From IMG/VR virus record IMGVR_UViG_3300029122_000292: DNA of 64,000 nucleotides. One strand, given 5' to 3'. Position 1 is the first letter of the stretch. Each line of letters opens with the position of its first letter. The notes under the pieces were generated by a model, which saw only the letters and a program-made list of their open reading frames with translations, was not told where the DNA came from and searched no databases. The stretch comes from a virus. The position numbers were made by a program, and so were the translations under genes. Positions 736-62,139 of the stretch are shown here, piece after piece.

Positions 736-976
736 AGTCCTTCACCACCGTTCCGTCATCTGACATATTGTCAAAGCGATACTTGATATCATCCCACAGC
801 TTTAAGATTGCATTGAGCTTTTTTGTTTTGTGGAACTTTGTATATACAGAGCCCGTAGTTGGATGCTCGCCAATCTCTTCATAAAAAATTCCCATTGCAC
901 GAATAAAGAATGCACAACGGCGGGAATAGCAGTAGAAGTAATCGCCTCCTAAATCTTTATGAAATTTTTCTTCCAT
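716..976 (-). CDS. hypothetical protein (86 aa)
   Basis: ORF track; compact minus-strand gene order. Confidence 0.5.
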   Translation of the reverse strand: MEEKFHKDLGGDYFYCYSRRCAFFIRAMGIFYEEIGEHPTTGSVYTKFHKTKKLNAILKLWDDIKYRFDNMSDDGTVVKDYGQNCR

Positions 977-1146
977 CTTTGAATTCTGGAACCTCCTTTA
1001 CAATTTAATTTCATGGGTACAGGTATGCGAGTCGAACGCATCTGGAATTTTTCCTTGTCTCAGCTTATGAGGCTGGCCAGCACACCGGCGCTGTCACCTG
1101 CGACATATAGGGCTCGCCTTTTCGGACGAGCCGTTTATTTAACTAT

Positions 1147-1380: not shown

Positions 1381-2580
1381 TTAAATTACTATCTTTGCTG
1401 GTTTTTCAAGCTTCACATCATACAGACAGGTCAAACCATCATCAGCAATAACAGCTACGGCCTGCTGTGGGATATCATTCTTGCGAATACCAACGGCATA
1501 ACTATCAGTGCCGCATACGCAGCCGCTTTCAATAACCTTTGTCCCGTGTACAGTTGTCATTCCGTTTGTGTGGCGATGTCCGAGGAAGACCAAATCAATC
1601 GGCTGTTTCACCATCATGGTCAAATGTTCAACGACGTTAGCAGGGGAGTCTTTATCTCCATGTGCATACATCACCAGACTATTACGAGCCTTAAATCCAC
1701 CAAACGTAGGATCGAGCTTCTCTGTTTTTACTTCAATGCCAGCCAGATTCTGTAGCCGTGCCTTCATATAAAACGGAATCAGCGCTTCGAGTTCATCACC
1801 AGCGACTTGTTCGTCCTTGTTTGGGAAAACCCGTGAATGATTGCCGCTGACCGAATACACATCAATGTGTTGGCATACTTCGTACAGTTCTGCTACAAAG
1901 TTGCTTACCAACTCTGCGGCTGTCATAACCTGTTCGATACTATTTTCATTGTTCTGAACTCGAGTGTTAATATGAATATGACCATTGATAAGATCACCAA
2001 GCAACAGCACATGAATCTTTTCGGCAGCATGTCGCTCAACAATGTTAAATACTTGAGTGACATAGCTTTCTAGCCTTGCCTTTAAAATTTCCTTATCAAA
2101 CTTGTTCCATGCAGAGTCAATGCCAGCACCTGTATGTAAGTCAGATAGGCACACAATTAAGTCATGTCCGCTGCCTTCGTACTGTACAATATTCAGGAAA
2201 TCATTCTTGTCATAGGGCACAACAGCACTTGCAATCATTTCCTTGATGGATTCAGCACGCGCAATATCACGATAAACCTTATTTGTTGCCGCCCGCTCGT
2301 CTCGCATCTTGACCTGTTCTATCTTCAGCCGCTGCAACTCGTCTGCCACAGTGCTACCGCACATATGTTCAAGCGCATAGTCGTAGCCGGCCTTCCACGA
2401 CTTATATTTCTTTCGATAAGCACATTCCCCAAAATTGGAATTTGTAGCTTCGTTCAAAACTACGGCTGCTTGATCCCATGTTAATTTTCGCTCAGAGCAC
2501 GCATTGCCAATACGCATCATGTACTCGTCAAAGGATTCGTCATCCGTCTTTCTGAATTCATTCTTTTTAATTTCGTCCAT
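1381..2580 (-). CDS. calcineurin-like metallophosphoesterase (SbcD/Mre11-type or Ser/Thr phosphatase fold) with about 130-aa N-terminal extension
   Basis: Motifs GDLINGHIH, GNHSR, GHRHT typical of the metallophosphoesterase superfamily. Confidence 0.8.
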   Translation of the reverse strand: MDEIKKNEFRKTDDESFDEYMMRIGNACSERKLTWDQAAVVLNEATNSNFGECAYRKKYKSWKAGYDYALEHMCGSTVADELQRLKIEQVKMRDERAATNKVYRDIARAESIKEMIASAVVPYDKNDFLNIVQYEGSGHDLIVCLSDLHTGAGIDSAWNKFDKEILKARLESYVTQVFNIVERHAAEKIHVLLLGDLINGHIHINTRVQNNENSIEQVMTAAELVSNFVAELYEVCQHIDVYSVSGNHSRVFPNKDEQVAGDELEALIPFYMKARLQNLAGIEVKTEKLDPTFGGFKARNSLVMYAHGDKDSPANVVEHLTMMVKQPIDLVFLGHRHTNGMTTVHGTKVIESGCVCGTDSYAVGIRKNDIPQQAVAVIADDGLTCLYDVKLEKPAKIVI

Positions 2581-3678: not shown

Positions 3679-3954
3679 TTACTCGATTGGTACAATATTG
3701 CCATCAATATAACGACAAAGCTGTCCATGTTCGTTATAGTATGGAGCCATATAGCTCGCTCCTGCACCACCACTAATGTAATAATACATAACTTTTGTAT
3801 CCTTGGCGTACACGATAGAAGTATTCAAAATATGATAAAAATTGTCACTATAATTGTCGGCCCAATTACCATATTGGTCTTCTTTTGTACCGCAGCCAGT
3901 CAGCAAACATCCTATCAAACAGATGGAAATCAATATAACAAAAACCCTCTTCAT
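3679..3954 (-). CDS. putative lipoprotein (91 aa)
   Basis: N-terminal signal peptide with lipobox LLTGC (MKRVFVILISICLIGCLLTGCG). Confidence 0.6.
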   Translation of the reverse strand: MKRVFVILISICLIGCLLTGCGTKEDQYGNWADNYSDNFYHILNTSIVYAKDTKVMYYYISGGAGASYMAPYYNEHGQLCRYIDGNIVPIE

Positions 3955-4211
3955 TCTGTTTTGTCCTCCCAGCCCACAGATTCATGAGCGAATTTTTGGA
4001 TACGTTGAGCTTCGTCCCAGCTAAACATCATCTCGCCGCAATTCGCACATTTCATGGCGGTAACATTTGAGGCTTCGAGTTCCTGTCCACGGCAGTGGAA
4101 TTTATATGTCAGCCCATTTGTCAGTGTCATAGTTCCGCCGCACTTGGGGCATTCCATCTGCTGCGGGGTTTCTGCGTGCTGTGGTTTCTTTTTTTTGAAC
4201 AGATTAAACAT
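3951..4211 (-). CDS. zinc-ribbon protein (86 aa)
   Basis: CPKCGG...CANCG cysteine pairs; start overlaps upstream stop. Confidence 0.55.
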   Translation of the reverse strand: MFNLFKKKKPQHAETPQQMECPKCGGTMTLTNGLTYKFHCRGQELEASNVTAMKCANCGEMMFSWDEAQRIQKFAHESVGWEDKTE

Positions 4212-4494
4212 CGATATTCACCTCTGCTGATTCTGGATAAAATTCTGGATCACCTGAAACATTTTTGCATTGTTGGATTATCTCATTAACCTTTGTTGTA
4301 TACGCAGTTTTACAATCGGCGCAATAGAATATATTAACGTTCTGAATTTTGATTTCTTGATGAGGTGTATTTTTGTTTTTGACTTTTATATCCTTTATAA
4401 CAGCAGGATATACTCTTGTTGAATAACAAAATGGACAATAAAACATATTCTTTTCAAGTTCAGCTATATTTATAAAATATTTAAAATCATTCAT
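4204..4494 (-). CDS. zinc-finger protein (96 aa)
   Basis: CPFC...CADC motif; ORF track. Confidence 0.5.
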   Translation of the reverse strand: MNDFKYFINIAELEKNMFYCPFCYSTRVYPAVIKDIKVKNKNTPHQEIKIQNVNIFYCADCKTAYTTKVNEIIQQCKNVSGDPEFYPESAEVNIDV

Positions 4495-4495
4495 A

Positions 4496-7045
4496 TCATT
4501 TCACCCTCGCCTCATAAATTTTTGGTTCAGCTAAACTATATCGTTGACCAAGGTATTCATACTTGCCATTCGGGTCGTGAACTGGTAACTGCACTGGAAC
4601 GGGTTTGATATTTTCAACTACGCCAGCACCAGCCATGTGCCACAAGAACTTTTTAAACTTGTTAGGATATTTTTCATAGCACAGCACCACTAGAATGTTA
4701 GCCAACTCACGAACATCGGGGCAGACCAGCTTGCACTTGTTACGATACACGTTATAGATTGCTTGCCAGTTGGTTTCATAGGTCTTTGCTTCTTCTTTCG
4801 TCATGATGCCTTCAAGCTCTTTACGATAGAGTTTCCAGTTTTTAGCTTTCTTTTCGAGCTCTAACTGGTTCTTGCGGTATTTATTAAAGTCCAGAAAGAT
4901 GGCTTCGATCTCATTAAATACATCCTGATCATAGCCGATTTCAGAATCGTACATTATGTGCCAATTAAAACTGCCAGCGGGCTCTTTATGCCAACGGACA
5001 CCACGCTCCCAACGCTCGAGACTCATACAAAGTAAATTCATATTGCTGTGTGCCTTGCTAAGATTATGTAAACGTGCATAGTAGGGGCCTGCATATTTCA
5101 TGAAATAGGGCGTGCTCTTAGGACCAGTACCATATTTTTGTATATTTCTGGGAATCTTATATCCACAGCCAGTTTTAGCTCTATCGATTTCCTTTCCATT
5201 TGCGACTGACAAAAGAGAAACATATTTCAAATATTCTTGTTTTGTCTTTTCAGTCTTAGGAACTTTGTTTTGATAGACAGTGCTTAAATTTGAAATCTCG
5301 CCAATTTGACTTTTAAGACCACGAAGAGTACAAGCAAATTTATTGTCAAGGGTATCAGTTTCAGCAAGAGCAGTCTTTTTGTCCTCAAGATCCAACGTAA
5401 TAGGGATATCTGTATGTACTCCGGGAATCATGGAAGGTTCATCAATAACAAGGACGAGGTCGCCGTCAAAATCGGAACCATTGAGTCGAGGTGCATTAAT
5501 GTCATAAATCGAAGTGAAACAACAATTTACAAGTCCATGAAAATATTTTTGAGTCAATTCATTATCGACGGCGCTAACAAGCAGGTGCTCTGATCTTGAT
5601 ATATGGGGGTTTCGTTCACAAATGCGGTCTCCAAGTGCAACGCCACGACGATCAAAAGTATAAATCTCACCAGCCTTTAACGCTCCAACAACAGGGAGCC
5701 CGCCAGCCCATTCCATTAGAGCAACAAGATCTGGTACCCAAAATTTAAATGTTGCATTCATCCAGAGTTTTCCACATTTAAATCCATCACGAGTTTTATC
5801 AAGTAAGGAATGGACATACTCTTTAACGCATGGCTCGTGAATCATTTCTTGATTACGTGCTAATGCAGCAATATAATGATTCAATGGATTAACATCGTCA
5901 GCCATTAATCCAAGAAAACAATCAGTGTAAAAAATATCATCACTTGTGACTTTTTCATAAAAATCTACAGACATGTCAGCGAAGTGTTTGAAATCATCGA
6001 ATTCTAGGTCTATATTTTGCAAAATTTGATAATTGCATTTTGTGGTTAAATTTTCTCGTTCAGCGCTATAATTCCATTTCGCAATAGCAAAGCAGCTTTT
6101 TGTTTTACGAAACCATTCCAAATATCTCTCCCAGTCTTTATATGTGCCGTCTTTCTTGAAATATTTATATCCTTTATAAAGGCTGACGGTAAGAATCATA
6201 AGTGGTTCACTGCCGGGAGTTACATCATATTCTTGTCCCCAAATATCTTTGATTTTTGTAACGCCACGCTCCGCATAAAATGATTCATAATCAATCTCGT
6301 GCATGCATCCTTTGATATATGGTGCGCGAATAATACAACTGTTAATATGTTCGTCAGTATTTATTTTGCGTTCAATCTGGCGCATGATTTCTGGATGACA
6401 AATACCTGCACCATCGAAGCAGTTAATAGTGATATCGGCTTTCTTTACAGCGACATCTTTTTGTGTCCAACTTCTTTTGTTGCCAGCTTTATCAATGAAT
6501 TCTGTTGTTTTATCGTATAGATATTCAACCATTTGGTCTTTAATTGTATTCTCGTAATCATCAACGATACAAATTTTAGGTTCCCATTCCGGTAAGCAAA
6601 AAGCAGACGAAAGATTCAAACCACGATAAGCATAATATTTGCTAAGAACAGTTGGCGTTTCAGAAAAATCAAGTCCCATACTAATTCGCCTATCAAGTTC
6701 TGGTGCAATATGACGTTCAACAAAGCTGAGCATGCTTTGACGAACCATACTTGCACTGCGTTCACTAAACAAATACGTTTCTCCATTGATTTTAAATCCG
6801 TGTTTCACAAGGCGTTCAAGAGCTTTTGGTTTGTTGTATCCACCTGTAGCGTCAACAAAAACAACAAATTTCTGAAACTTATCGTCATTCATAGATATCA
6901 TACGAATTTGGCGGAACATCATGTTATCTCCCTGTAACACAGTGAAATGAATAAGTTCTTCGTTAGTTAGTTTGAAATTATAATCATGAGTAATAATATA
7001 GTTAAGAGGAAATTTTAAAACGCTATATAATGGAGGAGAAAACAT
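4496..7045 (-). CDS. 849-aa protein with NGSDFDGD motif; candidate non-canonical single-subunit RNA polymerase (YonO / two-barrel type)
   Basis: Long ORF. DxDGD, the metal-binding signature of double-psi beta-barrel RNAPs (YonO has DFDGD), found as SDFDGDLVLVID. Rest of the fold cannot be verified by eye. Confidence 0.45.
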   Translation of the reverse strand: MFSPPLYSVLKFPLNYIITHDYNFKLTNEELIHFTVLQGDNMMFRQIRMISMNDDKFQKFVVFVDATGGYNKPKALERLVKHGFKINGETYLFSERSASMVRQSMLSFVERHIAPELDRRISMGLDFSETPTVLSKYYAYRGLNLSSAFCLPEWEPKICIVDDYENTIKDQMVEYLYDKTTEFIDKAGNKRSWTQKDVAVKKADITINCFDGAGICHPEIMRQIERKINTDEHINSCIIRAPYIKGCMHEIDYESFYAERGVTKIKDIWGQEYDVTPGSEPLMILTVSLYKGYKYFKKDGTYKDWERYLEWFRKTKSCFAIAKWNYSAERENLTTKCNYQILQNIDLEFDDFKHFADMSVDFYEKVTSDDIFYTDCFLGLMADDVNPLNHYIAALARNQEMIHEPCVKEYVHSLLDKTRDGFKCGKLWMNATFKFWVPDLVALMEWAGGLPVVGALKAGEIYTFDRRGVALGDRICERNPHISRSEHLLVSAVDNELTQKYFHGLVNCCFTSIYDINAPRLNGSDFDGDLVLVIDEPSMIPGVHTDIPITLDLEDKKTALAETDTLDNKFACTLRGLKSQIGEISNLSTVYQNKVPKTEKTKQEYLKYVSLLSVANGKEIDRAKTGCGYKIPRNIQKYGTGPKSTPYFMKYAGPYYARLHNLSKAHSNMNLLCMSLERWERGVRWHKEPAGSFNWHIMYDSEIGYDQDVFNEIEAIFLDFNKYRKNQLELEKKAKNWKLYRKELEGIMTKEEAKTYETNWQAIYNVYRNKCKLVCPDVRELANILVVLCYEKYPNKFKKFLWHMAGAGVVENIKPVPVQLPVHDPNGKYEYLGQRYSLAEPKIYEARVK

Positions 7046-13076: not shown

Positions 13077-14790
13077 TCATTGTCCTCCTTGATAAGGATG
13101 TATTGGATATCGTTTTACGGTTAATATGTTTAAGTACTGTTTGTAAGGGCGAAATTTTGAGCTGCCAGAACATAGCGGGCGAGAAATGCTCTCAGCAGCA
13201 CAAACGGGACTTAAATATATCATGCCTATATTATACACCAAATTTTTGTTATTTGCAAGCGAAATTGCATATATTTTCCGGGGCGATACGTTGTTTTTTA
13301 GCGATGCTGCGCAGGACAGCTGCTTAATGGAGTGTTTAACGGCGTTTATGCGTGAAATGTGCGTTTTTAGTGGCATTTTTAGCGTTTTTAGGGCAAAATT
13401 TAACGTTTTTGATCAAAAAATGAGCGAAATTTGAGCGATCAGGGAAGTGAATTTTGGTCTTTATGGGATACTAGCGGGATGAAATTACGATGATAGGCGC
13501 AATTTATAACAATATAATATGATGTAAATTTGAACGATAATACGTTGTTTACCGGGTGATGCTTCGGGACGTTTTTTGGCTACGCAGCAATGTACTGTGG
13601 TATGGCGGCGTGTGGTGTTGTAGGCGACAGCTGTGCGATCTTGATGGGTGGAAATAGGGGCTGCAGAGCGGTGGTTGACATGGCTGTTGAGATTAAAATT
13701 GGGAAGTGAGGTGCTGCACAGATGGATGTAGAAATGTTGTGAGCTACGCAAGAGCTCGGGAGATTTAGGGCGTGATGGGGAGATAGAACAACTAAGCCCT
13801 TCGGGCTTCGCGCGGGCTGACCCCGGATTTTCAACCTGCCCCCCTCTTGCCCTGTCTATCATCCATTTTTTCTAGGATTCATGCGGCTTTTCGGCTAATA
13901 TGACCTTTTGTTAAAAGGTGGGATTAGGTAGTCCCTGAACACGGAATTTATACCTATTTATATATAGGCGACTTTCCATTCCGTTTTTGTGGGCGGTGGA
14001 TTTTGGTGTTTGTGCGCTTGTTGCAAAAATAAATAGATGGTCTATACTGTAGACACTCCAAGGGGAGCGGGAAACACCGGGAACGGCACCCACACCCCGG
14101 GGAGTAGTCGCACCTTGAAAATTGCAAAGTTTGGATTTTCCCATGTGGGCGGTTTATACCGCGCCGGGTATCCGGTCAAGGTTTATGCCTTGCCATTTTC
14201 AAAACATGGGTTTCCTATCTGAACAATTAGTGCGCCCAAACCCCGATGGCCAAACATTACCGGCATAATTCCCAAGAACGTGGGAGAAGTGCGGGGGGGG
14301 GCGGTGTACCTTGAAAACTGAACAAAAGGCAGAACCTAAGATAACACCACGGGGACTGTTATGCGCAAGCATAGTTTTGTAGAAAACGCCAAGGCCAGAG
14401 CTGGCGATAATAGATACAATACCAAAGATAGTACGGTTGTTTGATGGCGTAGAACCGCCTAGAGGAGAAAAAAGCTCTTGTACCACCCCTACTATAAGCT
14501 AGAATAGCGGGCAAGGGTGCAAGCAAAAGAACACCATTAGTTCCAGATGGGCAAAGTGCGCCAAGACTAACTAACGCACGATGGACAGCACACGGGCTGT
14601 ATAAGTCCGTGCCATAATGGAACACGGGCAACAGTGCAATGGCCTAGAGAAAAGCACAACCCCAAAAGCATATAAGCTGCAAGTGTAGCTTTACATAAAA
14701 GAGACGGTCATCGGTATGCACTCTCCAAAAGCGTACCGTACCAGAGCGCTAAACAATCCGGTTTAGTGCAAGTTTTTATAAGATGAGAGG
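13077..14790. other. 1.7 kb non-coding, locally GC-rich, structured region between divergent gene blocks; candidate origin/regulatory hub and/or ncRNA locus
   Basis: Only short mutually overlapping ORFs; phased (A)GCGTTTTTA(G) repeats at 13360-13430; GNRA-type hairpins such as AGCCCTTCGGGCT; G-runs. Confidence 0.4.
14017..14044 (+). promoter_or_regulatory. sigma70-like promoter TTGCAA-N16-TATACT
   Basis: Read directly from sequence inside the non-coding region. Confidence 0.35.
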
Positions 14791-21714: not shown

Positions 21715-22366
21715 GAATTTCCAGCAATTTTCTACATACATAATGCGAGTCCAGATGATATTATAAACGAAGTTTTCGCAGAGGGAACTCCGGTAGTGTG
21801 AAAACGCACCGCCGGGGTTTAATGCGGCTACTGGTTCTGCAGAACTGGTACTGGTCCCAAGCCCAGAAATGCAATCGCAAGTGGCGCACATAGCGTCATG
21901 ATCGAAGCGGTTGCACAAACAGAAGGGCGCTCCACCGCACTAGTGAAATTTGATTTGATTTTGAAGCAAAGGCCACGCTGATAAATCAATGATAAAAGTA
22001 AACTAGAGGGTGTTACTTGAAGTGAGCGAAACTAAACGAAAGGAGGGTTTATAGCTTGAATTGTAAAATCAGTTACCGCTCGCTAGGAGTGGTCTTTGGT
22101 GCAAGGGTCGCGTCTTACTCCAATGAGAAAATTTTCATGGGATGGCGATACAAACTGTTTTGACGTTTAACTGAAACTTCCAAATTAAATAGAATTGACG
22201 TTGCAAGTGCTCGTTGCATCCGAGCATAAGTTCGCATCATACATACGAGTTTAGCGGTAGTCGCAAATAGGCGTAATCGACCTATAAGGTTCGCTATAAT
22301 GCGGGGCTAGGTGATTCCCGAACGGACAAGTTAAACGTATGTTAAGGATAAGAAACCGGGCGACTG

Positions 22367-26865: not shown

Positions 26866-27289
26866 TTACGCAAAGGTAGGATGAGGTATCCCGGGGCGGA
26901 GGGGCCTGCTTTCAGCCTCTGAACGAGTCGACGGAGTCAGACCCAGAACCACTGAACGCCGAGCAAGGCGATTTGGTTGCAAAACGCCCGAAACTCAACA
27001 AAGTAGCTCATCAAAGTTCGACAGAAGCTCATCAATTGAACTCAATCAACGCGAGTTGAACGGGTACTGATCAACTTCGGGACCTTTTTAAGATCAATCT
27101 TGAGAGCTTAAAAGAGCAACAACATCATTTAGATCTCGATGAATAATAATGCATAAATATGCAGAAAGGACGAATAATATACAATGATTTATGCATAGCT
27201 AATTGAGGCGCTGCCTAACGCCTATTATAAATAAGGTAGTCGACAAAAATGACACAAAAAATATATTTAAGTTCTGTTTATAATGACAA

Positions 27290-27318: not shown

Positions 27319-27363
27319 CATTTCACAAACAGGACTTAAATATACATAAGGGAGGAAAAACAA

Positions 27364-28863
27364 GTGAATGAGAACGAAAACGTAGCGATGCAGCTGGCGA
27401 CCACAAGGAAGTTCGGCGAGCTTGAGATTCAGGTCTACGAGAATCCGGCGGTCGGTCACAGCAGGGTACAGGATGATTTCTGGATGACACGGGAGCAGAT
27501 TGGCACTGCATTGGAATACGATAAGCCGAATGAACGTATCGGCAAGATTCATCAACGTAACGCAGATCGTCTTGACCCACTTTCAACTTTGGTCAAAATG
27601 ACCAAGGTTGAAGGCAATAGAACGGTAAAACGTGAAATTATTTGTTACAATCTGCGTGGTGTTATGGAGATCTGCCGCTACAGCACCCAGCCTAAAGCGA
27701 ACGCCTTCATTGATTTCTGCTGGGATGTGATGGTCGCTCTGATGCAGGGCGAAACCGTATCTCTGGACAGAGGGAAGATGAGTGATGTAGAGTTGCGGCG
27801 ACAGGCACGCTTTGATGTTATGACTCAAGGCATTGAAGAACTTCGCCAGTCTCAGATTCAGCTTTGTTCTCAGATGGCCAAGATGGAAGAAAAGCGCCGG
27901 CAGGACAGGGAAGCTCTTGAGAATTTGATCCATTTCACAAAAGCAGACCTTGAGAAGGCAGAACGCATTGTGAGCAAGAACGACATCATTATCTCCACAA
28001 TTGAACAGATCAAGAAGCAGCTGGCAACGACTATCCAGCAGCCAACTTATCAGAATGGTTCTTATACTCCGCGTAAGACTTACATTCAGCCAGCAGAAAC
28101 TTCGTGGAAACATGACGTTAAGGAGATGGTGAGAAAAATCTCCCACATTGAGGGTGTGCCCCAAAAAGACATCTTTAACGGCATGTACAAAACCTTCGAG
28201 AAAGAGTTCGGATGGTCGGTATACGAAGAACGAAAGCTCTACGCGAAGAAAAAGGATATTTCGGATATTTATTCGATCCCGCTCATTGATATTGTGGAGA
28301 TGGCCAACGATAACATTCGGTCAAGTTTCTATTGCCGACTCAAGGATCGCTATGAGAACGATCTTTTTGATCCCGAGGAAGCAAAGAGGCAGCCGCATGT
28401 GAGCAAGCGAAATCCGCCGATGATCCCTGCCAGCATGATTCCTACACGGCATAAGTTTGAAGATTTTCCGAGTGTGTTGTCTCCTGAAAATCCGGGCGGC
28501 AATGATATCAAGGTTGTAGCAGAGGTTCAGGCAGTTGAAGTTGAAGCTCCAACGGTTGAAACGCCGGTGGCTGAAGCTCTGGTGGTCAAAGAACCGAAAA
28601 AGAAATACTACTACAAGCCGAGCATTACACTTCCGATCGTTGAACCCATTGCAAAAAAGCTGGGTGATAAGACGATTGGGTATTGGGTTACCTATGCAAA
28701 GATCTATGACACGATCGGCGTTGTCAAGATGGATCGTATGCGCAAGGCGTATGTACGTTCTCATAATAAGCCGCCCAAGGCTACTCCTGATATTTTCCAA
28801 CATTCTGATAAGAATATGAAAGTGTTTAAGGAAGCCGCAAAGATTGTGGCGGCAGCTATCTAA
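27364..28863 (+). CDS. Bro-N / KilA-C family antirepressor-like protein (499 aa)
   Basis: N-terminal Bro-N-like segment (FGELEIQVYEN...DFWMTREQIGTALEY...); GTG start after AGGGAGGAAAAACAA. Confidence 0.65.
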   Translation: MNENENVAMQLATTRKFGELEIQVYENPAVGHSRVQDDFWMTREQIGTALEYDKPNERIGKIHQRNADRLDPLSTLVKMTKVEGNRTVKREIICYNLRGVMEICRYSTQPKANAFIDFCWDVMVALMQGETVSLDRGKMSDVELRRQARFDVMTQGIEELRQSQIQLCSQMAKMEEKRRQDREALENLIHFTKADLEKAERIVSKNDIIISTIEQIKKQLATTIQQPTYQNGSYTPRKTYIQPAETSWKHDVKEMVRKISHIEGVPQKDIFNGMYKTFEKEFGWSVYEERKLYAKKKDISDIYSIPLIDIVEMANDNIRSSFYCRLKDRYENDLFDPEEAKRQPHVSKRNPPMIPASMIPTRHKFEDFPSVLSPENPGGNDIKVVAEVQAVEVEAPTVETPVAEALVVKEPKKKYYYKPSITLPIVEPIAKKLGDKTIGYWVTYAKIYDTIGVVKMDRMRKAYVRSHNKPPKATPDIFQHSDKNMKVFKEAAKIVAAAI

Positions 28864-29112
28864 GCTATCTACTTTCCTCCATTGTCCTTGGGACTGACAG
28901 CCGGGAAAGACCGGCATATATCCGGGTGTAGCGAAGCTGGTATCGCGCCAAATTTGGGATTTGGAGATTTCGCCCGTTCAAGTCGGGTCACTCGGACCAT
29001 GGTGCAGGGTCTTTCCTTTCTACCTGTGCCTATTGTGTGTATAAAACGGTTTCCATTAGACGAAACCGCGTGGCTGAAAATGCCGAGCAGGTACGATAAT
29101 CCTGCCTTATAT

Positions 29113-29499
29113 GGGCCCGAAAGGTTTTCGACAGGGCTATGAAAATTCACAATTCGCAGGTCGGCCATCACCTTACGAGGCAAAAAACAATAAACGCTAA
29201 CTACAATAGTTATCGCTGCGCGGCTTGATGCCGTGCCCAAAACAGCATCCTGATAGGCAGGTAAATGTTTGATGGTTCAAAGAATAAATCCCGGAACCCG
29301 ATGTAAACGGTAATAAACACCGGCGTTCTCGGACGCTAAAACCGAGTGGTGGAGTGATGTAACAAACCGTTACGTCCCTGGGTTTGCTGTGTTGGCGGCA
29401 TGAATTCCTTTCAAAAATTCTAAATGCTAACTATTGCGTAAGAAGATTGTGTACGAGTAATAGTTCTGGACGTGGGTTCGAATCCCACCGGGTCCACCA
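29113..29499 (+). ncRNA. ssrA: tmRNA (ssrA); putative tag peptide (A)NYNSYRCAA
   Basis: 5' GGGCCCG pairs with 3' CGGGTCC-A-CCA giving a G3-U70 wobble (AlaRS identity element); T-arm GGGTTCGAATCCC; internal reading frame starting GCT and ending GCG GCT TGA. Confidence 0.75.
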
Positions 29500-29862
29500 G
29501 TGGCGCAAGCCGCAAAGCTAGGTTCGATGCGACAGCGTAGTGTAGTGCGAGGTCGCTGGGGTGGCGCAATTCCACCGTGGATGCAATGCATTCATAACGC
29601 TTTGACCGAAATTGTGCGAACAGACTGCGACGGGGTAGCTCCTCGTGGAGTGAGGGTCTGGTGACAACATGAGTAGGCGATAGGATGACCTGCGAAAGTG
29701 GTCTAGTCAGTTTGGTGCCCGGACTGGCGGAGAGTGGATTTAAAAGGGCAGCCTTTGAGGATGGACTCTGGGGAAGACAAAATGTACCTAGTTGTATCTG
29801 CTGACGCGGTTAAGTCGCATTGCACATCGCCGATGCTGTTACATGGTTAAATCCTCCTCTCT

Positions 29863-29938
29863 GTGGCGTTAGTTCAGTTGGCAGAACACTTGGCTCATAA
29901 CCGAGTAGTCGTGGGTTCAAAGCCCTCACGCCGCACCA
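29863..29938 (+). tRNA. tRNA-Met (anticodon CAT)
   Basis: Manual fold: acceptor GTGGCGT/ACGCCGC, D-stem GTTC/GAAC, anticodon loop CTCATAA, T-loop TTCAAAG, encoded CCA. Confidence 0.75.
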
Positions 29939-29981
29939 TTTCGTGTACGAATATCAACAAATCAAAAAGAGGTAAATCAAA

Positions 29982-30245
29982 ATGGCTGAGAATGCAGCTA
30001 AAAATACCGAAAGATATCAATCCTATAAACTTCAATGGATGTTGGATCATGGACACACATTAGAGGAAATTTTTAGAGAACTCTACATGATTCAAAAGGA
30101 ATACTTGGAAGACGGAGAGTCATGCCCAAGCATTTGGACGTTGTTGGATCGATGGGAAAAGGATATTGGGTTTGGTGGAGAATGTTGGGCTTGCTTTGAT
30201 GAATGGCTGGAGAATGAAGGTAGAGAGGTAAATCAAAATGGCTGA
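29982..30245 (+). CDS. hypothetical protein (87 aa)
   Basis: ORF track; GAGGTAAATCAAAATG. Confidence 0.5.
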   Translation: MAENAAKNTERYQSYKLQWMLDHGHTLEEIFRELYMIQKEYLEDGESCPSIWTLLDRWEKDIGFGGECWACFDEWLENEGREVNQNG

Positions 30246-30909
30246 CAAGTATCTCAGTATCATTACAAACTTCGGCTGCCACTATAGCTGCCCTGAGTGT
30301 ATTGTCCGCAATAACAAGCTCAAGATGACACCGACAGACGAGTATTCTTCTTATATGCAGTTAGAGCATGTTCTGAAGAACGAATGTAATGACTGTAATT
30401 GGGTATCTGTGTCTGGCGGCGGTGATCCACTTTATCACTGGTGGGAACATCAGGCGTGGTGGACAGGATTCTTTTCGGTGTGTAAAGAACTTGGTCGCAA
30501 GATTGAGTTGCATACGAGCTATTATGATTTTGATCATGATGATGGAATTTTAATGTTTCCATTCGAACAGTTTGATAGAGTTGTGTATCATTTGCATTGT
30601 GCAGAGGAGCTTTATAAGATTTGTCGCCGGGGTAAAGAAATCGTTCGAGTGGTATTCGTTGTGGACGATTCTATGGACGAATACGAAGTTAGCAGGATTT
30701 CAGCTATTGTTCAAGAAAGCGACGATATCGACGAGCTTACATTCCGGCAACGCGTGGATGCAAACTATAAGCCGACCTATCATTTGCGCGGTCTCCTGCT
30801 GGCGGGGCATAAAAAGGCTTGGTGGTATGTGACACAGTGCGATTACAATACTTACTTCCACAACGGTAAACTGTACACGAAGTACACGGATATCTTTGAG
30901 AAGGAGTAA
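30238..30909 (+). CDS. small radical-SAM protein (CX3CX2C; QueE- or activase-like size)
   Basis: CHYSCPEC motif near the N-terminus; glycine-rich SVSGGGDPL segment. Confidence 0.55.
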   Translation: MADKYLSIITNFGCHYSCPECIVRNNKLKMTPTDEYSSYMQLEHVLKNECNDCNWVSVSGGGDPLYHWWEHQAWWTGFFSVCKELGRKIELHTSYYDFDHDDGILMFPFEQFDRVVYHLHCAEELYKICRRGKEIVRVVFVVDDSMDEYEVSRISAIVQESDDIDELTFRQRVDANYKPTYHLRGLLLAGHKKAWWYVTQCDYNTYFHNGKLYTKYTDIFEKE

Positions 30910-30914
30910 TTCAG

Positions 30915-31223
30915 ATGTACATTGTCGTAAGCGATTATACCAACGAAAAAGTTGACATCTACAAATCAGTAAGTTTCGATAAAGCATTTCAGGCGAGAAG
31001 CGATGCGATTGATTTTGCTGCCCGTAGCTATCAGAGCTTCTTTGACAATATGCCCAGCGATGAAGCTGCACGGTATGAAAACGCAACGCGAATTAACACT
31101 GACTCTTATGCGGATTTCTGTGGGTGTGCTTTGTGTCCGTATCCCGAGTATGCTATCGGAGCTGCGGTTGATAATGGTGAAGATAATCACATGTACTACA
31201 TGGTATTTAAGGTGGAGGAGTGA
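30915..31223 (+). CDS. hypothetical protein (102 aa)
   Basis: ORF track. Confidence 0.5.
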   Translation: MYIVVSDYTNEKVDIYKSVSFDKAFQARSDAIDFAARSYQSFFDNMPSDEAARYENATRINTDSYADFCGCALCPYPEYAIGAAVDNGEDNHMYYMVFKVEE

Positions 31224-31315
31224 TTTCATGAAGCGATACCTTGTAAGCGTTTGGATACGACAGTCTTATTCCATTTGTGGCAAAAAGCTGAGACCGGATT
31301 CTGAGGTAGTAAGTT

Positions 31316-31540
31316 ATGAAAAAACATAAAGATTTATTGCTGGCAGCCTGCGCATCGGCTGTTTCGTTTTTGAGTCTCGATGATGTTTTTGAGAAACTTC
31401 TACGGCACATCTCGCTTGTTCAAATGGCAACAGGAAACATAAGTTCTCTTTACGGACGTGTCAGCGAGTTGGCTCTTTCGGTATCTGTGGCTCTGTCGCT
31501 TGCGATTGGAGCTGTGGTATATATTTTATTCAAAAATTAA
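31316..31540 (+). CDS. small membrane protein (74 aa)
   Basis: Hydrophobic N- and C-terminal segments. Confidence 0.45.
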   Translation: MKKHKDLLLAACASAVSFLSLDDVFEKLLRHISLVQMATGNISSLYGRVSELALSVSVALSLAIGAVVYILFKN

Positions 31541-31552
31541 AAGGAGGAACGA

Positions 31553-32464
31553 ATGAAGAAGTTCAAAAAGATTTTCGTGGTTTCGTGTGCAATCGTGATG
31601 GCGTTGACCTTTACGGGGTGTACCAAGAAAGAGGTGTATACAATCGAACCTCATGAAACTGCATTTCTGATTTCACTCTCTGAGGGCGGTGGGAAACAGG
31701 CGTCCTTTGAGAGTGAGGCAATGCTCGCTGAAGCAAAGGTGGCAGCCAAACAGGTGTACATTACTTACTCGAAGCGACATCTGTCGCCGACTGACATCAT
31801 TGGTACTTGGGTACCGGATAACATGTTGGTTGTCGTCAATAGAACTCCTGTTACTCGTGAATGGTCCGAGGGCAAGGACAGTGGCACCAGCACTGTCAAC
31901 CAGTCCATCTCTGCCGAAAGCAAGGAGTCTATTGGCTTCTCTGTCGGTATGAACTGCTCTGCTCAGATCTACACTGAAAACGATGCAGTCAAGTTCCTGT
32001 ATTCCTACAACAACAAACAGCTCTCCGAGATTATGGATACTGAAATCCGTGCTCGTGTTGAAGCTGACTTTGTTGAAATGTGCGCCAAGTACACCATGAA
32101 TGAGATCCTTGAGAAGAAGGCCGAGATCATGGAGTATGTCCGCAAGGATGTGACTGAGTATTTTGCAGAACGCGGTATCACGATTACTGTCCTTGGTATG
32201 AAGGATGGCATTGAGTACGACGATGCGTCTGTTCAGGCTGCTATTAACAAGTCCTTTGTGGCTGAGCGCAATGATGAGGCGCAGGAGATTGAGAATCAGA
32301 CTAAGATTTCCAAGGCGAACGCAGAAGCCGAGGCGAATAAAATCATCTCTGAGTCTCTGACTGACCGGCTGATTCAGCAGCAGATGTATGAAAAGTGGGA
32401 TGGTAAGCTTCCTACTTATGTCGGCGGCGATGCCAGCATTCCTGTACTGAACGATATGAAGTAA
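31553..32464 (+). CDS. SPFH (band-7/prohibitin-like) domain lipoprotein (303 aa)
   Basis: Lipobox LTFTGC; Ala/Glu-rich coiled C-terminus typical of the SPFH family; GC3-rich. Confidence 0.6.
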   Translation: MKKFKKIFVVSCAIVMALTFTGCTKKEVYTIEPHETAFLISLSEGGGKQASFESEAMLAEAKVAAKQVYITYSKRHLSPTDIIGTWVPDNMLVVVNRTPVTREWSEGKDSGTSTVNQSISAESKESIGFSVGMNCSAQIYTENDAVKFLYSYNNKQLSEIMDTEIRARVEADFVEMCAKYTMNEILEKKAEIMEYVRKDVTEYFAERGITITVLGMKDGIEYDDASVQAAINKSFVAERNDEAQEIENQTKISKANAEAEANKIISESLTDRLIQQQMYEKWDGKLPTYVGGDASIPVLNDMK

Positions 32465-32553
32465 CCTCGTAGGAACGGAGACATTAAACCCGTGTCCTGA
32501 GATCAACACAAGATCTAAAAACTGTGTGGCAGCTCGGAAAGACGAGCAAGTAT

Positions 32554-32636
32554 GTTTCGGTGCTGGAATCGGCAGACAGGGGAGTCTCAAAAACTTCTGC
32601 GAAAGCATGTGGGTTCAAGTCCCATCCGAAACGCCA
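32554..32636 (+). tRNA. tRNA-Leu (anticodon CAA), type II
   Basis: Acceptor GTTTCGG/CCGAAAC, anticodon loop CTCAAAA, long variable arm, T-loop TTCAAGT, CCA. Confidence 0.7.
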
Positions 32637-32759
32637 TGGGTGAGTTGCGTCGCCCAAAAATCTCCTTTTCCTCACAAATGCTTAGTGGCTCATGAGTTCC
32701 AGACATGAATCACCGTGACTGAACAAGTCGTAGCAGGTACGCAATCCTGTTTTTGATAA

Positions 32760-32845
32760 GTCGGTATGGTGGAATAGGCGAGACACGTCTGCTTTAGGGA
32801 CAGATGCTTAAGTGCATGTGAGTTCAAATCTCACTACCGACACCA
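32760..32845 (+). tRNA. tRNA-Leu (anticodon TAG), type II
   Basis: Acceptor GTCGGTA/TACCGAC, anticodon loop TTTAGGG, variable arm ATGCTTAAGTGCAT, T-arm GTGAG-TTCAAAT-CTCAC, CCA. Confidence 0.6.
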
Positions 32846-32995
32846 ATCTCGCATGGGTAGGATCTTTAGCGGTCAGATCCGGCCGCGCCTGTGCGAGATA
32901 CCACCCCCCTGTGGGGAATGTTAAATTTTTCCATGTACGTTATTCTCGGCTCGCTCGAAAGAGTGCAGCGTGCCTTTGTAAGCCGAGTATTTTAT

Positions 32996-33064
32996 GTGGC
33001 TGTAGCTCAGATGGTAGAGCAGCAAGCTAACTGCGCGCCGTTGGTTCAAGTCCAACCAGTCACT
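32996..33064 (+). tRNA. tRNA-like gene; anticodon arm not resolved by eye
   Basis: Acceptor GTGGCTG/CAGTCAC, D-arm GCTC-AGATGGTA-GAGC, T-arm GTTGG-TTCAAGT-CCAAC. Region between the arms is too short for a standard anticodon arm plus variable loop. Confidence 0.4.
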
Positions 33065-33183
33065 CCGATGCCCGCTTATAGGGTCTCATTCCTCCTATTC
33101 GGGCTTTACCTCTTTTCTTCCTTGTTATTCCCGGCTCCATGGCGAATGCTGTGGCAATAAGGCGTAGTAAGCTGGGTTTATAT

Positions 33184-33258
33184 GCAGCGGTCGTACATCG
33201 GCTAGTATATCAGCCTTCCAAGCTGAGGAGGTGGGTTCGACTCCCATTCGCTGCTCCA
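33184..33258 (+). tRNA. tRNA-Gly (anticodon TCC)
   Basis: Acceptor GCAGCGG/TCGCTGC, anticodon stem TCAGC/GCTGA, loop CTTCCAA, T-loop TTCGACT, CCA. Confidence 0.7.
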
Positions 33259-33566
33259 TCGTGTGCGACGGTTTGAGACTCCTACATGCAAATCCAGCCG
33301 GGTAAGTCCGTCCACAACCGGTGTAGGTAGACATCTTTACTCATTAGGTCTCTAACTAAATGAGGAATAGAAAATCAGTTGTTCCAGCTAGATCGGGGAT
33401 TGGCCGTTCATTGGCAAACGACAGGCATCACACCGGTAAATGATGCTGAGCCAAATAGGAAGGGGAATAAGGTGCAAGTCGAGTAGCTGTCGGACGAATA
33501 CTCTTCAGGTAGCCAGTAAACTGGAACGTAAAACGAATGTTGGCTGTTTCTGATTTTCTTTTATAT

Positions 33567-33653
33567 GCTACCATGATGTAACTGGCAGGCATGAGGGACT
33601 TAAAATCCCTTGCTGGAAACAGCGTGCGGGTTCAAGTCCCGCTGGTAGCACCA
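33567..33653 (+). tRNA. tRNA-Leu (anticodon TAA), type II
   Basis: Acceptor GCTACCA/TGGTAGC, anticodon stem AGGGA/TCCCT, loop CTTAAAA, long variable arm, T-arm GCGGG-TTCAAGT-CCCGC, CCA. Confidence 0.75.
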
Positions 33654-35095: not shown

Positions 35096-35147
35096 TTTTA
35101 TTTTTTGGTCACACAAACATAACTTAAATATATAAAGGAGCGAAGAA

Positions 35148-41817: not shown

Positions 41818-42633
41818 ATGGCAGAAACCGCAAAGAAAGTGGCACAAAAAACCATTCTTTTCCCAGTTGAAGATCAGCCTGCAAAACTCGTCGTTACAGA
41901 GGACGATATTGAACGAATTATTCAGCAGGCAGTTAAAAGTGCCACTGCAACGAAAAAAGCACGGAAACCTCGTCGGACGGACAGTCTTTATCTCAAGGAT
42001 GGGCGTAGAAAGCCAACCCCGGCAGATCCTATCAAGTCAAAGGAAGATTTTAAGAAAATTGTTGATTATCTTGGATCAAATGGCACTGAAGAAATTGCGC
42101 TCAGGAACAAAACACTATTCATTCTCGGCTGTTCAATTGGTGTTCGATGCGGCGATTTGTTGAAGCTTAAAACGGCTGATGTTTATTATGAGAACGCTCA
42201 TGTAAAAGATCATGTTGAGCTGATCGAACAGAAGACCGGCAAGCGAAACGTGTGTAAGATTTCTCATATGGCAAAAGAAGCTTTAAGAGAATATTATCAG
42301 GCAATTAGTTTTCGAATTGACCGCGACACGCTTCTTTTTCAGAGCAAGAAAGGTGGACAGCTTAACGTTAGATCAGTGAGCAACCTTTTGAAGAAGGCTG
42401 GTAAGGCGTGTGGTTTGAATATTGAGTTATCTACTCACACTATGCGTAAAACTTATGCTATGGCCGCGTTACAGAGTGCAGAAGGTACAGTTGATGAAGC
42501 GAACATCGTGAGTATTCTGCAAAACAAATTTAACCACAGTAATCAGCGTATTACGATGAGATATATCAAAATGGATCAAGAAAAACTTGATGAAGTCTCT
42601 GAGAATGTTTCCGACTGGTTTGAAGGAGAATAA
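41818..42633 (+). CDS. tyrosine recombinase / phage-integrase-family catalytic domain protein (271 aa)
   Basis: Arg I (GVRCGDLLKL), HxxR (THTMRKTYA) and catalytic Tyr (ITMRYIKMD). Confidence 0.7.
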   Translation: MAETAKKVAQKTILFPVEDQPAKLVVTEDDIERIIQQAVKSATATKKARKPRRTDSLYLKDGRRKPTPADPIKSKEDFKKIVDYLGSNGTEEIALRNKTLFILGCSIGVRCGDLLKLKTADVYYENAHVKDHVELIEQKTGKRNVCKISHMAKEALREYYQAISFRIDRDTLLFQSKKGGQLNVRSVSNLLKKAGKACGLNIELSTHTMRKTYAMAALQSAEGTVDEANIVSILQNKFNHSNQRITMRYIKMDQEKLDEVSENVSDWFEGE

Positions 42634-48667: not shown

Positions 48668-48695
48668 AAGCTGAGATTTAAGGAGAGGATTTGAA

Positions 48696-50407: not shown

Positions 50408-50411
50408 GTTC

Positions 50412-50885: not shown

Positions 50886-50886
50886 T

Positions 50887-60082: not shown

Positions 60083-60406
60083 ATGATGATAAAAACTTTT
60101 ACTGCGGAGGAGTTTTTTAGCTACATCCGGTCTTTTGAAAAAATGTATGTATGGTGCGGTTCGGATGGAAACAGTGGATTGTTTATTCGGACAAATCCAA
60201 AACGCGCTGCTATCATGAAAAGAAAAAATGGGTATGAGATCTCTTGCATGATCGCTCAGAAAGGAGCGATGTTTTGCGAGGAGGGCGGGCTGATACTTTA
60301 CGGCAATGAATTTCAGTGTAACATTGAAACAGATTGCGCTAGATATGAGGTGGCTGTAAAATCTGATAAGATGGCTGGACTGATGAAAATCATTTTACAA
60401 ACATAA
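60083..60406 (+). CDS. hypothetical protein (107 aa)
   Basis: ATG after GGAGG. Confidence 0.5.
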   Translation: MMIKTFTAEEFFSYIRSFEKMYVWCGSDGNSGLFIRTNPKRAAIMKRKNGYEISCMIAQKGAMFCEEGGLILYGNEFQCNIETDCARYEVAVKSDKMAGLMKIILQT

Positions 60407-60431
60407 CTTAAAAATAAAATGAATAAAAACG

Positions 60432-60919: not shown

Positions 60920-60994
60920 ATTATTGTCTATTGAAAAAACTCCTTACATAGTGTAAAATATTATAAAAACACCCTCACTATGTAAGGAGTGAAT

Positions 60995-62059
60995 ATGATG
61001 GACAGCACGATGTACAACTACGATCGCAAAGCTGCTTTCATGGAGTTTTATATCAACGGTGGAAGAAACGAAGACGCCGCTAGGTACAGACAAAGAGATG
61101 CAGTAACTGCGTTGAACAAGGTTGCAATTGTTGAAACAAAATACAATAAAGATTTCTGTGAATTTAAAAGCGGCTCAACAGAGATGAATGATCTTTGTGT
61201 TTTGTGGCTTAACAATTTGGCGGATACAAGAAGAGTAAGAATGACATCTATTTTAAGAGCCTATCTTAAATGGTGTTATCAAAACGATTATATCAACGCC
61301 GAACAGTATTATAGTCATGATATGACTAGTACAGTATCTAGAAGCTCAAACAAAACCGACGTCTGGTCTTCGATGTTGATTAAACAGATGGAGGTTGCAA
61401 GCGAAAACGAAACAAACTCTCTAGACTCTGACTTTATTTTTGAAGATAAAGAGTCCTTTATAGAATATGTTTCGACTGTGCTTGGTCATGAAAAATATAC
61501 GATGCCGGCAGCTTTAATGATTTTACTTTACTATCAGTTTGAATCTACAGCTGTAACGAAAATATTAAAGACAGAAGTAGATGCCGCCGGGCATACAGTG
61601 CAAAACGTTTATATCGATGACGAAACAGCATTTAATATTATTTATCGTGCAAAAGTCATTGACAGTTATAGCACAACGTTTGAAAGAAATAATAAAAATT
61701 ATGATCGAATAGAGTATTATGCTGATTCTCCGTACTTGTTAAGAAATACTTCAAGAGGAAGAAAAAAAGAACAAGAAACCGATCAGCAAGTTCCATATTC
61801 GTTCGTAAAAAAGGTTATGGAAGTGGAACGAAAAGCGAACAAAGAACTTCCAGAAGATTCTCCGTATAAAAATGTTATTATAAAGGGCGCAACAATTTCA
61901 AAATTAAAACTGTTCCACGAAATGAGAGTAGACGAAAAAAAGTACGGATTAGAATTTGTAAAAGAAAACATAATAGATGGAAAGTATGGTAATTATACAG
62001 TTCCGCAAACTGTATATAGAGAGTATTGTTTGATGGCGTCCAAAGCACGAAAAATTTAA
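60995..62059 (+). CDS. hypothetical protein (354 aa)
   Basis: ATG after AAGGAGTG. Confidence 0.55.
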   Translation: MMDSTMYNYDRKAAFMEFYINGGRNEDAARYRQRDAVTALNKVAIVETKYNKDFCEFKSGSTEMNDLCVLWLNNLADTRRVRMTSILRAYLKWCYQNDYINAEQYYSHDMTSTVSRSSNKTDVWSSMLIKQMEVASENETNSLDSDFIFEDKESFIEYVSTVLGHEKYTMPAALMILLYYQFESTAVTKILKTEVDAAGHTVQNVYIDDETAFNIIYRAKVIDSYSTTFERNNKNYDRIEYYADSPYLLRNTSRGRKKEQETDQQVPYSFVKKVMEVERKANKELPEDSPYKNVIIKGATISKLKLFHEMRVDEKKYGLEFVKENIIDGKYGNYTVPQTVYREYCLMASKARKI

Positions 62060-62092: not shown

Positions 62093-62139
62093 GACGCACA
62101 AACATGACTTAAATATACTTTCTGCAAGGAGGTGAGAGA

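Follow-up and report, generated by a model that had tools for sequence, protein, structure and literature searches.

A predicted YonO-family single-chain RNA polymerase and its operon in a gut Clostridia phage similar to SPbeta

The polymerase gene and its operon

Few known relatives of cellular RNA polymerases (RNAPs) are as small as the YonO-type enzymes, and to our knowledge the biochemistry of the group is that of SPbeta YonO only. This 839-aa protein, encoded by a phage of Bacillus subtilis, is a DNA-dependent RNAP that transcribes the SPbeta late genes, and its aspartate-triad mutant (3D>3N) is inactive (Forrest et al. 2017, PMC5467207). In SPbeta the repressor MrpR binds the SPBRE operator, and the yonP-yonO promoter is among those under this control (Kohm et al. 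2023, PMC10516654).

The window analysed here is the whole 64,000-nt stretch presented from IMG/VR virus record IMGVR_UViG_3300029122_000292, and its source is a gut Clostridia phage similar to SPbeta. The minus strand carries an 849-aa ORF with an SDFDGD signature at 4496..7045, as the preliminary description had observed; the proposal made there, of a YonO-like single-subunit two-barrel RNAP, is now supported by fold search, a second-barrel motif and profile comparison to YonO. By sequence the product clearly belongs with the YonO-family single-chain RNAPs, which are miniature relatives of the cellular enzymes. What we regard as established is its homology and fold, the invariance of its catalytic motifs and the gene order shared with the SPbeta late operon.

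In a Pfam profile search the protein matched PF05183, the family that also includes YonO, with E 2.8e-14 and 53.2 bits (gathering score 23.8), over profile positions 49-559 (511/582). The yonO gene was found with the polymerase as query (tblastn E 4e-13, BLASTP E 2e-19), and a 46-sequence polymerase profile aligned with YonO in hhalign at 99.9% probability (E 1.4e-33, 678 columns). This alignment spans query residues 49-812 and YonO 78-793 and includes the C-terminal helical domain; the two proteins are thus collinear over ~680 columns, yet only 23% identical. Homologs number 313, and among those listed nearly all carry PF05183; the identical protein is indexed in 519 assembly-collection blocks with 814 member sequences. 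A search of reference genomes for close relatives returned none, and a scan with the polymerase profile gave only matches at ≤51% identity, plus one 71% fragment.

Both in SPbeta and in the window, a leftward polymerase operon lies by a divergent control region and is followed by YonJ, YonG, terminase and YonD homologs; the Pfam matches on the genes downstream of our polymerase (YonJ_N, YonG_N/C, Terminase_6N, YonD_N) keep the SPbeta order. The first recognisable SPbeta late-operon homolog 3' of the polymerase is a YonJ-like metallophosphoesterase/exonuclease (1381..2580, minus strand, PHROG 284), and the identical gene in related loci L003-L006 has Pfam matches to YonJ_N and Metallophos_2. 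This gene and several small ones separate the polymerase from the first large intergenic gap, an arrangement that departs from that of SPbeta. Two of the small ORFs (3951..4494, minus strand; 96 and 86 aa) overlap or abut the polymerase stop and are of zinc-ribbon type with sub-threshold Pfam matches only; speculatively, they are possible polymerase cofactors. The two systems differ in host (Bacillus for SPbeta, a gut Clostridia lineage here) and in the genes ahead of the polymerase, yonP alone in SPbeta versus phoH and ~15 small genes here. An HU-like yonN is a feature of SPbeta, whereas none was recognised downstream of our polymerase.

The structured RNA that precedes the late genes also differs, being the DUF3800-VIII RNA in SPbeta and a tRNA-like gene here (1016..1101, minus strand), with anticodon CAU and a long variable arm, with a hairpin immediately before it and the YonG-like and terminase genes beyond it. 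It scores 32 bits (E 2e-4) with the Rfam tRNA-Sec model, below gathering, and is called tRNA-Met(cat) by ARAGORN at a relaxed threshold. Its consensus cloverleaf has six compensatory pairs, and the gene is present in 50/50 related loci covering the region. A GC-rich conserved element after the hairpin (~1078-1106) was considered as a late promoter and rejected, being the 5' half of this tRNA-like gene. The first large intergenic gap past the polymerase contains the tRNA-like gene and no obvious promoter, and no promoter for the polymerase's own use was found.

Upstream, a consensus scan (10/12) places a sigma-A-type promoter, TTGCAA-17 nt-TATAAT with a TG extension, at 13230..13258 on the minus strand; from its position we infer that it drives the leftward operon from phoH to the polymerase. 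An equivalent, TTGNNN-17-TGTATAAT, lies upstream of phoH in all lineages. Host RNAP would start the polymerase-gene operon there.

A repeated element at early promoters and its candidate repressor

In SPbeta the corresponding operon promoter carries a MrpR-bound SPBRE; here it carries a copy of a 21-nt motif, M1, CACAAAC..ACTTAAATATA. M1 occurs seven times in the window against 0.04 expected, a 175-fold excess over chance, and is contiguous, asymmetric, intergenic and always in the orientation of the downstream gene. At the start of the operon that includes the polymerase gene, one copy (13125..13145, minus strand) lies past the sigma-A promoter and before the phoH RBS, with a divergent partner at 13199..13219 (plus); its position corresponds to that of the P_yonP SPBRE in SPbeta, and we propose, by this analogy, that it may be an SPBRE-like operator. 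The copy at 27324..27344 (plus) lies 5 nt past the -10 of TTGACG-17-TGtTATCAT and 5 nt short of the RBS, the layout of SPBRE at yopV and yonX, and that at 60396..60416 (plus) lies 16 nt upstream of TTGACA-17-TATAAT, the layout at aimR. The copy at 62097..62117 (plus) is past the terminator of the MrpR-like gene treated below and before the RBS of 62140-62742; the remaining two are at 27262..27282 (minus) and 35112..35132 (plus).

The preliminary description had connected the motif with the polymerase as its promoter, which would be a counterpart of the contiguous ~20-bp promoters of T7-type phages, and at first we favoured this too. The form, orientation and abundance of the motif would fit such a role, as would the three copies that are preceded by terminator-like hairpins and lack a strong upstream match to sigma-70. 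So would the 78 further ORFs, which show no sigma-70-family domain among the top families listed, a result on which we rejected a phage sigma factor as the M1 reader. However, M1 sites adjoin or overlap good sigma-A promoters, at early and not late genes; a search allowing ≤3 mismatches found none in the 10 kb that follow the polymerase, and the structural-gene arm has no exact copy.

Across three independent loci there are five motif types. Polymerases of the M1 and M3 lineages are 92% identical despite their different motifs, and M3 is the partner of three polymerase cores that share only 64-72% identity among themselves; the motif therefore does not track the polymerase. A polymerase "specificity segment" (alignment columns 681-760) that appeared to covary with motif type was rejected, since binned BLASTN attributed this C-terminal association to backbone linkage. 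What does covary with motif type is a MrpR-like protein.

This 356-aa protein, encoded at 60989..62059 on the plus strand, matches Pfam MrpR_N_CB over the full profile with E 8.4e-6 and 26.8 bits against a cutoff of 27, and its homologs carry PF22822. Members of the MrpR family combine a tyrosine-recombinase-like fold with a lack of recombinase activity. The N-terminus of the protein encoded here aligns with that of SPbeta MrpR in hhalign at E 1e-3, and similarity to the MrpR C-terminal domain is undetectable, so that the likeness to SPbeta MrpR is a match at the Pfam threshold confined to the N-terminal domain. An AF2 model built from four sequences (pLDDT 43) was unusable for fold search. 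The protein is hyper-divergent, with 30-38% identity between motif types, and has near-identical matches across the M3 lineages. From its sequence we consider it, as a borderline assignment, a candidate master repressor that may bind M1.

The proven repressor operator of SPbeta is closely similar to M1 in its arrangement. SPBRE (Kohm et al. 2023, PMC10516654) and M1 occur in ~7-10 copies, are asymmetric, 15-21 nt long and point the same way as the gene that follows, and lie either 4-7 nt past the -10 of a sigma-A promoter or 11-16 nt ahead of a -35; the M1 placements pair one for one with SPBRE sites in SPbeta. Both sets include the polymerase-operon promoter, and the arm that carries the element also encodes MrpR in SPbeta and, here, the protein with the putative MrpR N-terminal domain. 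Their ends are also alike (CACAAA[C/T]A...AAATAT), whereas M1, at 21 nt, has a different centre, and its binding is predicted by analogy. M1 is thus probably not the polymerase's promoter: both the lineage and the SPBRE comparisons removed that reading from first place, and we now hold it to be unlikely. More likely, judging by sequence context and the SPbeta parallel, M1 is a repressor binding site. On the 13230-13258 promoter and about six other early promoter regions it would serve as operator for the MrpR-like repressor, the pair being the counterpart of the SPBRE/MrpR system. We assign a probability of roughly 0.85 to the joint model, of a YonO-family RNAP, a host-transcribed leftward operon and M1 as the MrpR-like operator.

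Fold, catalytic residues and template

The structural model of the polymerase is confident, and global structural alignments together with motif alignments indicate that both barrels are present. S524-D-F-D-G-D529 (5459..5476, minus strand, translation verified) places the catalytic aspartate triad D525/D527/D529 in the beta-prime-like barrel; it is invariant in 46 homologs and aligns with DYDGD of QDE-1 and with DNDGD of YonO, a correction to the preliminary description, in which YonO was said to read DFDGD as our polymerase does. At the start of this barrel is R478-N-P-H481 (5603..5614, minus strand), which is invariant, aligns with YonO RSPH and, we presume, resembles the beta-prime R-x-P-x-x-H. 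The conserved Lys/Arg anticipated for a second barrel is found in R240-A-P-Y-I-K245-G246 (6308..6328, minus strand), the basic motif of the beta-like barrel, which aligns with YonO RLPWVKG and in which R240, P242, K245 and G246 are invariant in the 46-homolog alignment. Finally, D621-R-A-K624-T-G626 (5168..5185, minus strand) ends a long helix (model residues 599-625), aligns with YonO DFAKT and QDE-1 DQSKQG, and has D621, K624 and G626 invariant; by model and alignment, this is possibly a bridge-helix-like element. Our polymerase thus aligns with YonO at the aspartate triad and at the R-x-P-x-x-KG, R-x-PH and D-x-x-K-T motifs. The product would be an enzyme of ~100 kDa with two double-psi beta-barrels as its framework, resembling the beta/beta-prime core of cellular RNAPs, with D525, D527 and D529 holding the catalytic Mg2+ and the R240/K245 barrel giving basic residues.

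The best structural matches by Foldseek are the RNA-silencing RNA-dependent RNA polymerases QDE-1 and RDR2 (PDB 2j7n, 7y7p, 7w82), at 12-16% identity; crAss gp66 and Thermus-phage RNAPs were also matched, and no unrelated families. A PDB sequence search gave no match with either the polymerase or YonO, and the polymerase profile found QDE-1 alone, at E 1.2. The right-hand palm/fingers/thumb fold and the Pfam family of T7-like RNAPs (Pol A superfamily) are absent from the protein, and at 849 aa it is not of the crAss-like gp66 kind (~2000 aa or more, virion-packaged, polyprotein-like), gp66 of phage phi14:2 being ~2200 aa and packaged in the virion. The RNAPs of Thermus phages P23-45 and P74-26 are either much smaller or fused to virion proteins. 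Neither gp66 nor the Thermus-phage RNAPs (together PDB 6vr4, 8h2n, 8f5m, 8f72) belong to PF05183 by sequence.

The likeness to QDE-1 and RDR2, and the annotation of Thomasclavelia and Enterocloster phage homologs in GenBank as RNA-dependent RNA polymerases, might suggest that the protein makes dsRNA or amplifies RNA and does not transcribe DNA. We judge this very improbable: the GenBank annotations stem from the Pfam family name, and QDE-1 also takes DNA templates, according to the titles of 7y7r, 7y7s and 7y7t among the Foldseek matches. QDE-1 and RDR2 are cellular proteins of ~1000-1400 aa that use RNA or ssDNA in silencing, whereas the gene here belongs to a dsDNA tailed phage, in a late-transcription context with the same late-operon synteny as SPbeta. 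Among phage members only YonO is characterised; it depends on DNA as template, and late transcription requires it (PMC5467207).

The variable core and the apparent reach of SPbeta regulation

The polymerase core, from aa 1 to ~670, forms an island of 61-71% identity in phage backbones that are otherwise 93-99% identical, while the last ~90 residues are almost invariant; this suggests, from sequence comparison, repeated core swapping or diversifying selection. The selective pressure may come, for example, from a host defence or an inhibitor directed at the phage polymerase. One or two in-frame TAG codons occur in every polymerase gene of the amber-recoded sister lineages, and one of these codons falls where all other sampled sequences have W. 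No suppressor tRNA for these relatives was found in the tRNA-array loci. That such stops, and the unusual divergence of the first 670 residues among near-identical phages, mark a decaying or non-catalytic remnant, or a gene with another role such as replication priming, is scarcely credible, as the in-frame stops are always TAG and spread over many genes of those phages, which points to recoding and not decay, as the catalytic residues (D525, D527, G528, D529, R240, P242, K245, G246, R478-H481, D621 and K624) are all invariant over 46 sequences of 42-70% identity, and as the copy in the window is intact and its protein recurs so widely in the assemblies.

Perhaps both conflict and the control of timing centre on the polymerase in these phages, an idea that we regard as tentative and rather doubtful. 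If true, amber suppression would gate polymerase synthesis and form a translational timer for late transcription.

The polymerase described here adds an abundant and well-supported gut-phage relative to YonO, along with hundreds of family sequences, and leaves the known mechanism of the family unchanged. The regulatory logic of SPbeta, in which a master repressor acts on a scattered operator, the host transcribes the polymerase gene and the late genes lie beyond it, appears to reach from Bacillus to phages of gut Clostridia. Because the cores are interchangeable, the C-terminus is constant and there are five operator types, natural variation in this group could locate the promoter-specificity and interaction surfaces of these enzymes.

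The polymerase gene and its setting

The 849-aa ORF at 4496-7045 (minus strand) starts with ATG, is preceded by AAGGAG ~9 nt upstream, and bears SDFDGD at residues 524-529 (nt 5459-5476). DxDGD is weak evidence on its own, as a six-frame translation of the window contains it twice. A Pfam search gave a single match, PF05183 ("RdRP"), scoring 53.2 bits where the gathering score is 23.8; it aligns residues 65-652 with positions 49-559 of the 582-position profile. This family holds both the eukaryotic silencing polymerases and YonO-like proteins. PHROGs assigned the protein to phrog_8308 (function unknown; E 4.6e-92). BLASTP aligned it over 568 columns (E 2e-19) with YonO, the single-subunit RNA polymerase of prophage SPbeta, pairing SDFDGD with FDNDGD, RAPYIKG with RLPWVKG, RNPH with RSPH, and DRAKT with DFAKT. 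The triad motif of YonO is thus DNDGD, not the DFDGD that the preliminary description ascribed to it and that the window polymerase carries.

A large protein collection contained the exact polymerase sequence and 313 homologs, with PF05183 on almost every one listed. In 46 of these (42-70% identity), alignment revealed invariant residues in the beta-like barrel motif (R240, P242, K245, G246), RNPH (R478, N479, P480, H481) and the aspartate triad motif (D525, D527, G528, D529), along with D621, K624 and G626. The 46-homolog profile matched YonO in hhalign at 99.9% probability (E 1.4e-33), with 678 collinear columns extending into the C-terminal domain. An AlphaFold2 model built on the alignment (pLDDT 92, pTM 0.87) found RDR2 and QDE-1 as its best Foldseek matches in the PDB (E ~1e-20), followed by the Thermus-phage gp64 RNAP (E 1.6e-6), crAss-like gp66 and cellular beta-prime/Rpb1 subunits. 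No unrelated family competed among these matches, so the outcome named beforehand as speaking against a YonO-like enzyme did not arise; no YonO structure was present in the PDB copy searched. The PF05183 match, the BLASTP motif alignment and the hhalign match to YonO all uphold the YonO-like identity first proposed. Among GenBank phages, tblastn recovered SPbeta yonO (E 4e-13); nearer were genes of Thomasclavelia phages TR-TP1 and TR-TP2, matching over the full length at 39.5% identity, and that of Enterocloster phage PMBT24, each bearing the label "RNA-dependent RNA polymerase". No discussion of the PMBT24 homolog appears in that phage's genome paper. YonO-like PF05183 polymerases of Firmicutes prophages have been known since Iyer et al. 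2003 and Forrest et al. 2017, and it is well supported that ours is a further such enzyme, in a family already recognised.

The window is the non-structural portion of a large temperate phage, with genes running leftward to ~13.1 kb and rightward beyond. Its annotations include PhoH, Ant, an SbcD-like exonuclease, a tRNA array with tmRNA, reverse transcriptase, tyrosine integrase and NAD-salvage enzymes. Contigs with an identical polymerase encode, 3' of it, Pfam YonJ_N, YonG_N/C, Terminase_6N and YonD_N, the same gene order as in the SPbeta late operon. At 13230-13258 on the minus strand, a strong promoter of sigma-A type (TTGCAA-17 nt-TGTATAAT) is directed into the phoH-to-polymerase operon, and all related lineages have its equivalent. 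Gut Clostridia, e.g. Diplocloster, Anaerolentibacter, Lachnoclostridium and Oscillospiraceae, carry relatives at 43-51% identity in their genomes.

The M1 motif and the MrpR-like protein

The 21-nt repeat M1, CACAAACAnnACTTAAATATA, has seven copies in the window (0.04 expected), all intergenic and oriented as the gene 3' of each: 13125-13145 and 27262-27282 on the minus strand, and 13199-13219, 27324-27344, 35112-35132, 60396-60416 and 62097-62117 on the plus strand. At three independent loci the position of the element is shared among related lineages and its sequence is particular to each: one locus lies 5' of phoH, one 5' of 27364-28863, and one in the gap from 60989-62059 to 62140-62742. 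The types are M1, CACAAACAGGACTTAAATATA; M2, G[C/T]AAACAG[A/C]AG[A/T]AGTAAA; M3, CACACTTTACAATA; M4, AAAGTAAGATRTACACAG; and M5, GGTAGATAATAACAGTT.

The ORF at 60989-62059 (plus strand, 356 aa), which has M1 copies on both flanks, matched the full Pfam MrpR_N_CB profile (E 8.4e-6; 26.8 bits vs a cutoff of 27). It has E-x-x-YNKD-F and Y-x-x-W motifs in common with MrpR of SPbeta (hhalign E 1e-3, N-terminal domain only); its structure prediction was unusable (pLDDT 43). No protein diverges more between motif lineages (30-38% identity; neighbouring genes and polymerase, 57-92%), and motif type follows this one rather than the polymerase. Because motif copies flank the gene and identity is so low between motif lineages, its product is a candidate master repressor.

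MrpR is the master repressor of SPbeta and binds the 15-bp SPBRE at ~10 early promoters, including P_yonP at the head of the yonP-yonO operon (PMC10516654). Upstream of the genes named there as SPBRE-bearing we recovered a common motif, [T/A]CAAATACAAA[A/T]AATATGTAT, which we take to be SPBRE. It is asymmetric, oriented as the gene 3' of it, and lies either 4-7 nt past the -10 element, immediately 5' of the RBS (yopV, yonX), or 11-16 nt 5' of the -35 element (aimR, yonX). Both layouts are also found for M1, at 27324 and 60396, and the ends of the two motifs are alike.

The preliminary description had instead suggested that the polymerase would account for this promoter-like CACAAAC.. motif, but M1 as the promoter of the polymerase now seems improbable. 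Polymerases fall into three clades, each 92-94% identical within, bearing M1 and M3, M3 and M4, or M2 and M3; with M3 in all three, motif type does not follow polymerase sequence. An apparent tie between polymerase alignment columns 681-760 and M3 was rejected as backbone linkage: M3 phages share 93-99% identity on either side of the polymerase gene, and 61-71% in its first ~2 kb. The 10 kb 3' of the polymerase has no M1 copies at up to three mismatches, and a 136-kb relative has no exact ones in its structural arm. No sigma-factor domain was found among the matches listed for the 78 other ORFs. Given the covarying MrpR-like protein and the precedent of placement in SPbeta, M1 is better read as a predicted SPBRE-like operator (probability about 0.7).

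A tRNA-like gene and other features

The largest gap 3' of the polymerase (976-1139, minus strand) contains a hairpin and then a sequence kept in 50/50 related loci covering the region. As a late promoter this sequence was rejected, since Rfam, ARAGORN and cloverleaf covariation identify a tRNA-like gene (1016-1101, minus strand), previously unannotated, that precedes the YonG-like and terminase genes. It has anticodon CAU, a long variable arm, and a CCA-ending sequence beyond the acceptor stem. The full-length Rfam tRNA-Sec model fits it with 32 bits (E 2e-4), under the gathering score; ARAGORN calls tRNA-Met(cat) at a relaxed threshold and nothing at default settings. Six of the 21 pairs in the consensus cloverleaf show compensatory double changes (anticodon and T stems). 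In SPbeta, by contrast, the gap with P_YonO (yonN-yonK) contains a DUF3800-VIII RNA (L001:7033-7098, plus strand; Rfam, 47.5 bits vs a cutoff of 40.2), which is probably what Forrest et al. called an "unannotated ncRNA".

Elsewhere, tRNAs lie at 28922-33653, 62746-62820 and 63868-63942; ARAGORN and Rfam call eight each, the Rfam set including 32996-33064, absent from ARAGORN. Inside the array is a phage tmRNA (29113-29499, plus strand; Rfam 96 bits; tag ANYNSYRCAA). A type P5 twister ribozyme is at 21777-21866 (plus strand; Rfam 47.1 bits vs a gathering score of 37.6). A reverse transcriptase (39621-40856; PHROG polymerase/RT) and adjoining tyrosine integrase (41818-42633), both on the plus strand, were also found, and the former could belong to a diversity-generating retroelement or retron. 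The NAD-salvage cluster (47371-51651, plus strand) encodes ribose-phosphate pyrophosphokinase, nicotinamide phosphoribosyltransferase and NAD synthetase, and batch scanning of other ORFs gave Isochorismatase, Macro, HD, ThiF and PemK/MazF domains. This set may counter defences that act by depleting NAD.

Variation among relatives and a proposed course of events

The catalytic two-thirds of the polymerase gene (residues 1-670; ~5040-7045, minus strand) form an island of 61-71% DNA identity between phages that are 93-99% identical on either side of it (sister lineages L048, L056 and L077), while the last ~90 residues are almost invariant across all lineages. This suggests a core under recombination or diversifying selection. 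In these M3-motif sisters phoH, polymerase, YonG-like, terminase, portal and other genes contain in-frame TAG; as no other stop is found in frame and many genes are involved, the sequences indicate amber recoding. The window's lineage has no in-frame TAG, and its long ORFs end in TAG once in 67 (TAA 46, TGA 20). No suppressor tRNA for the recoded lineages was found in the loci with tRNA arrays. Some relatives (L122, L095, L284, L286, L293; proteins P0054, P0068, P0102, P0111) have a polymerase gene ~0.5-1 kb longer, or one predicted as an N-terminal fragment of 527-540 aa, suggesting inserted elements (intron, intein, homing endonuclease) or split genes. In the tRNA arrays of relatives L180, L133, L182, L135 and L146, calls of tRNA-Ile(tat) and tRNA-Met(cat) are present at an unusual length of 91-92 nt, perhaps owing to introns or to long variable arms.

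The analysis shows homology, invariant catalytic residues, fold and synteny, and we infer the following steps of a mechanism. Upon induction the MrpR-like repressor would leave its M1 operators, host sigma-A RNA polymerase would then transcribe the phoH-to-polymerase operon, and the new polymerase would next transcribe the packaging and structural genes 3' of it, much as YonO transcribes the SPbeta late genes (PMC5467207). The amber recoding, the hypervariable core and the tRNA-like gene, together with a probable repressor-operator system of SPbeta type in gut phages, may outweigh the gene assignment itself in interest.
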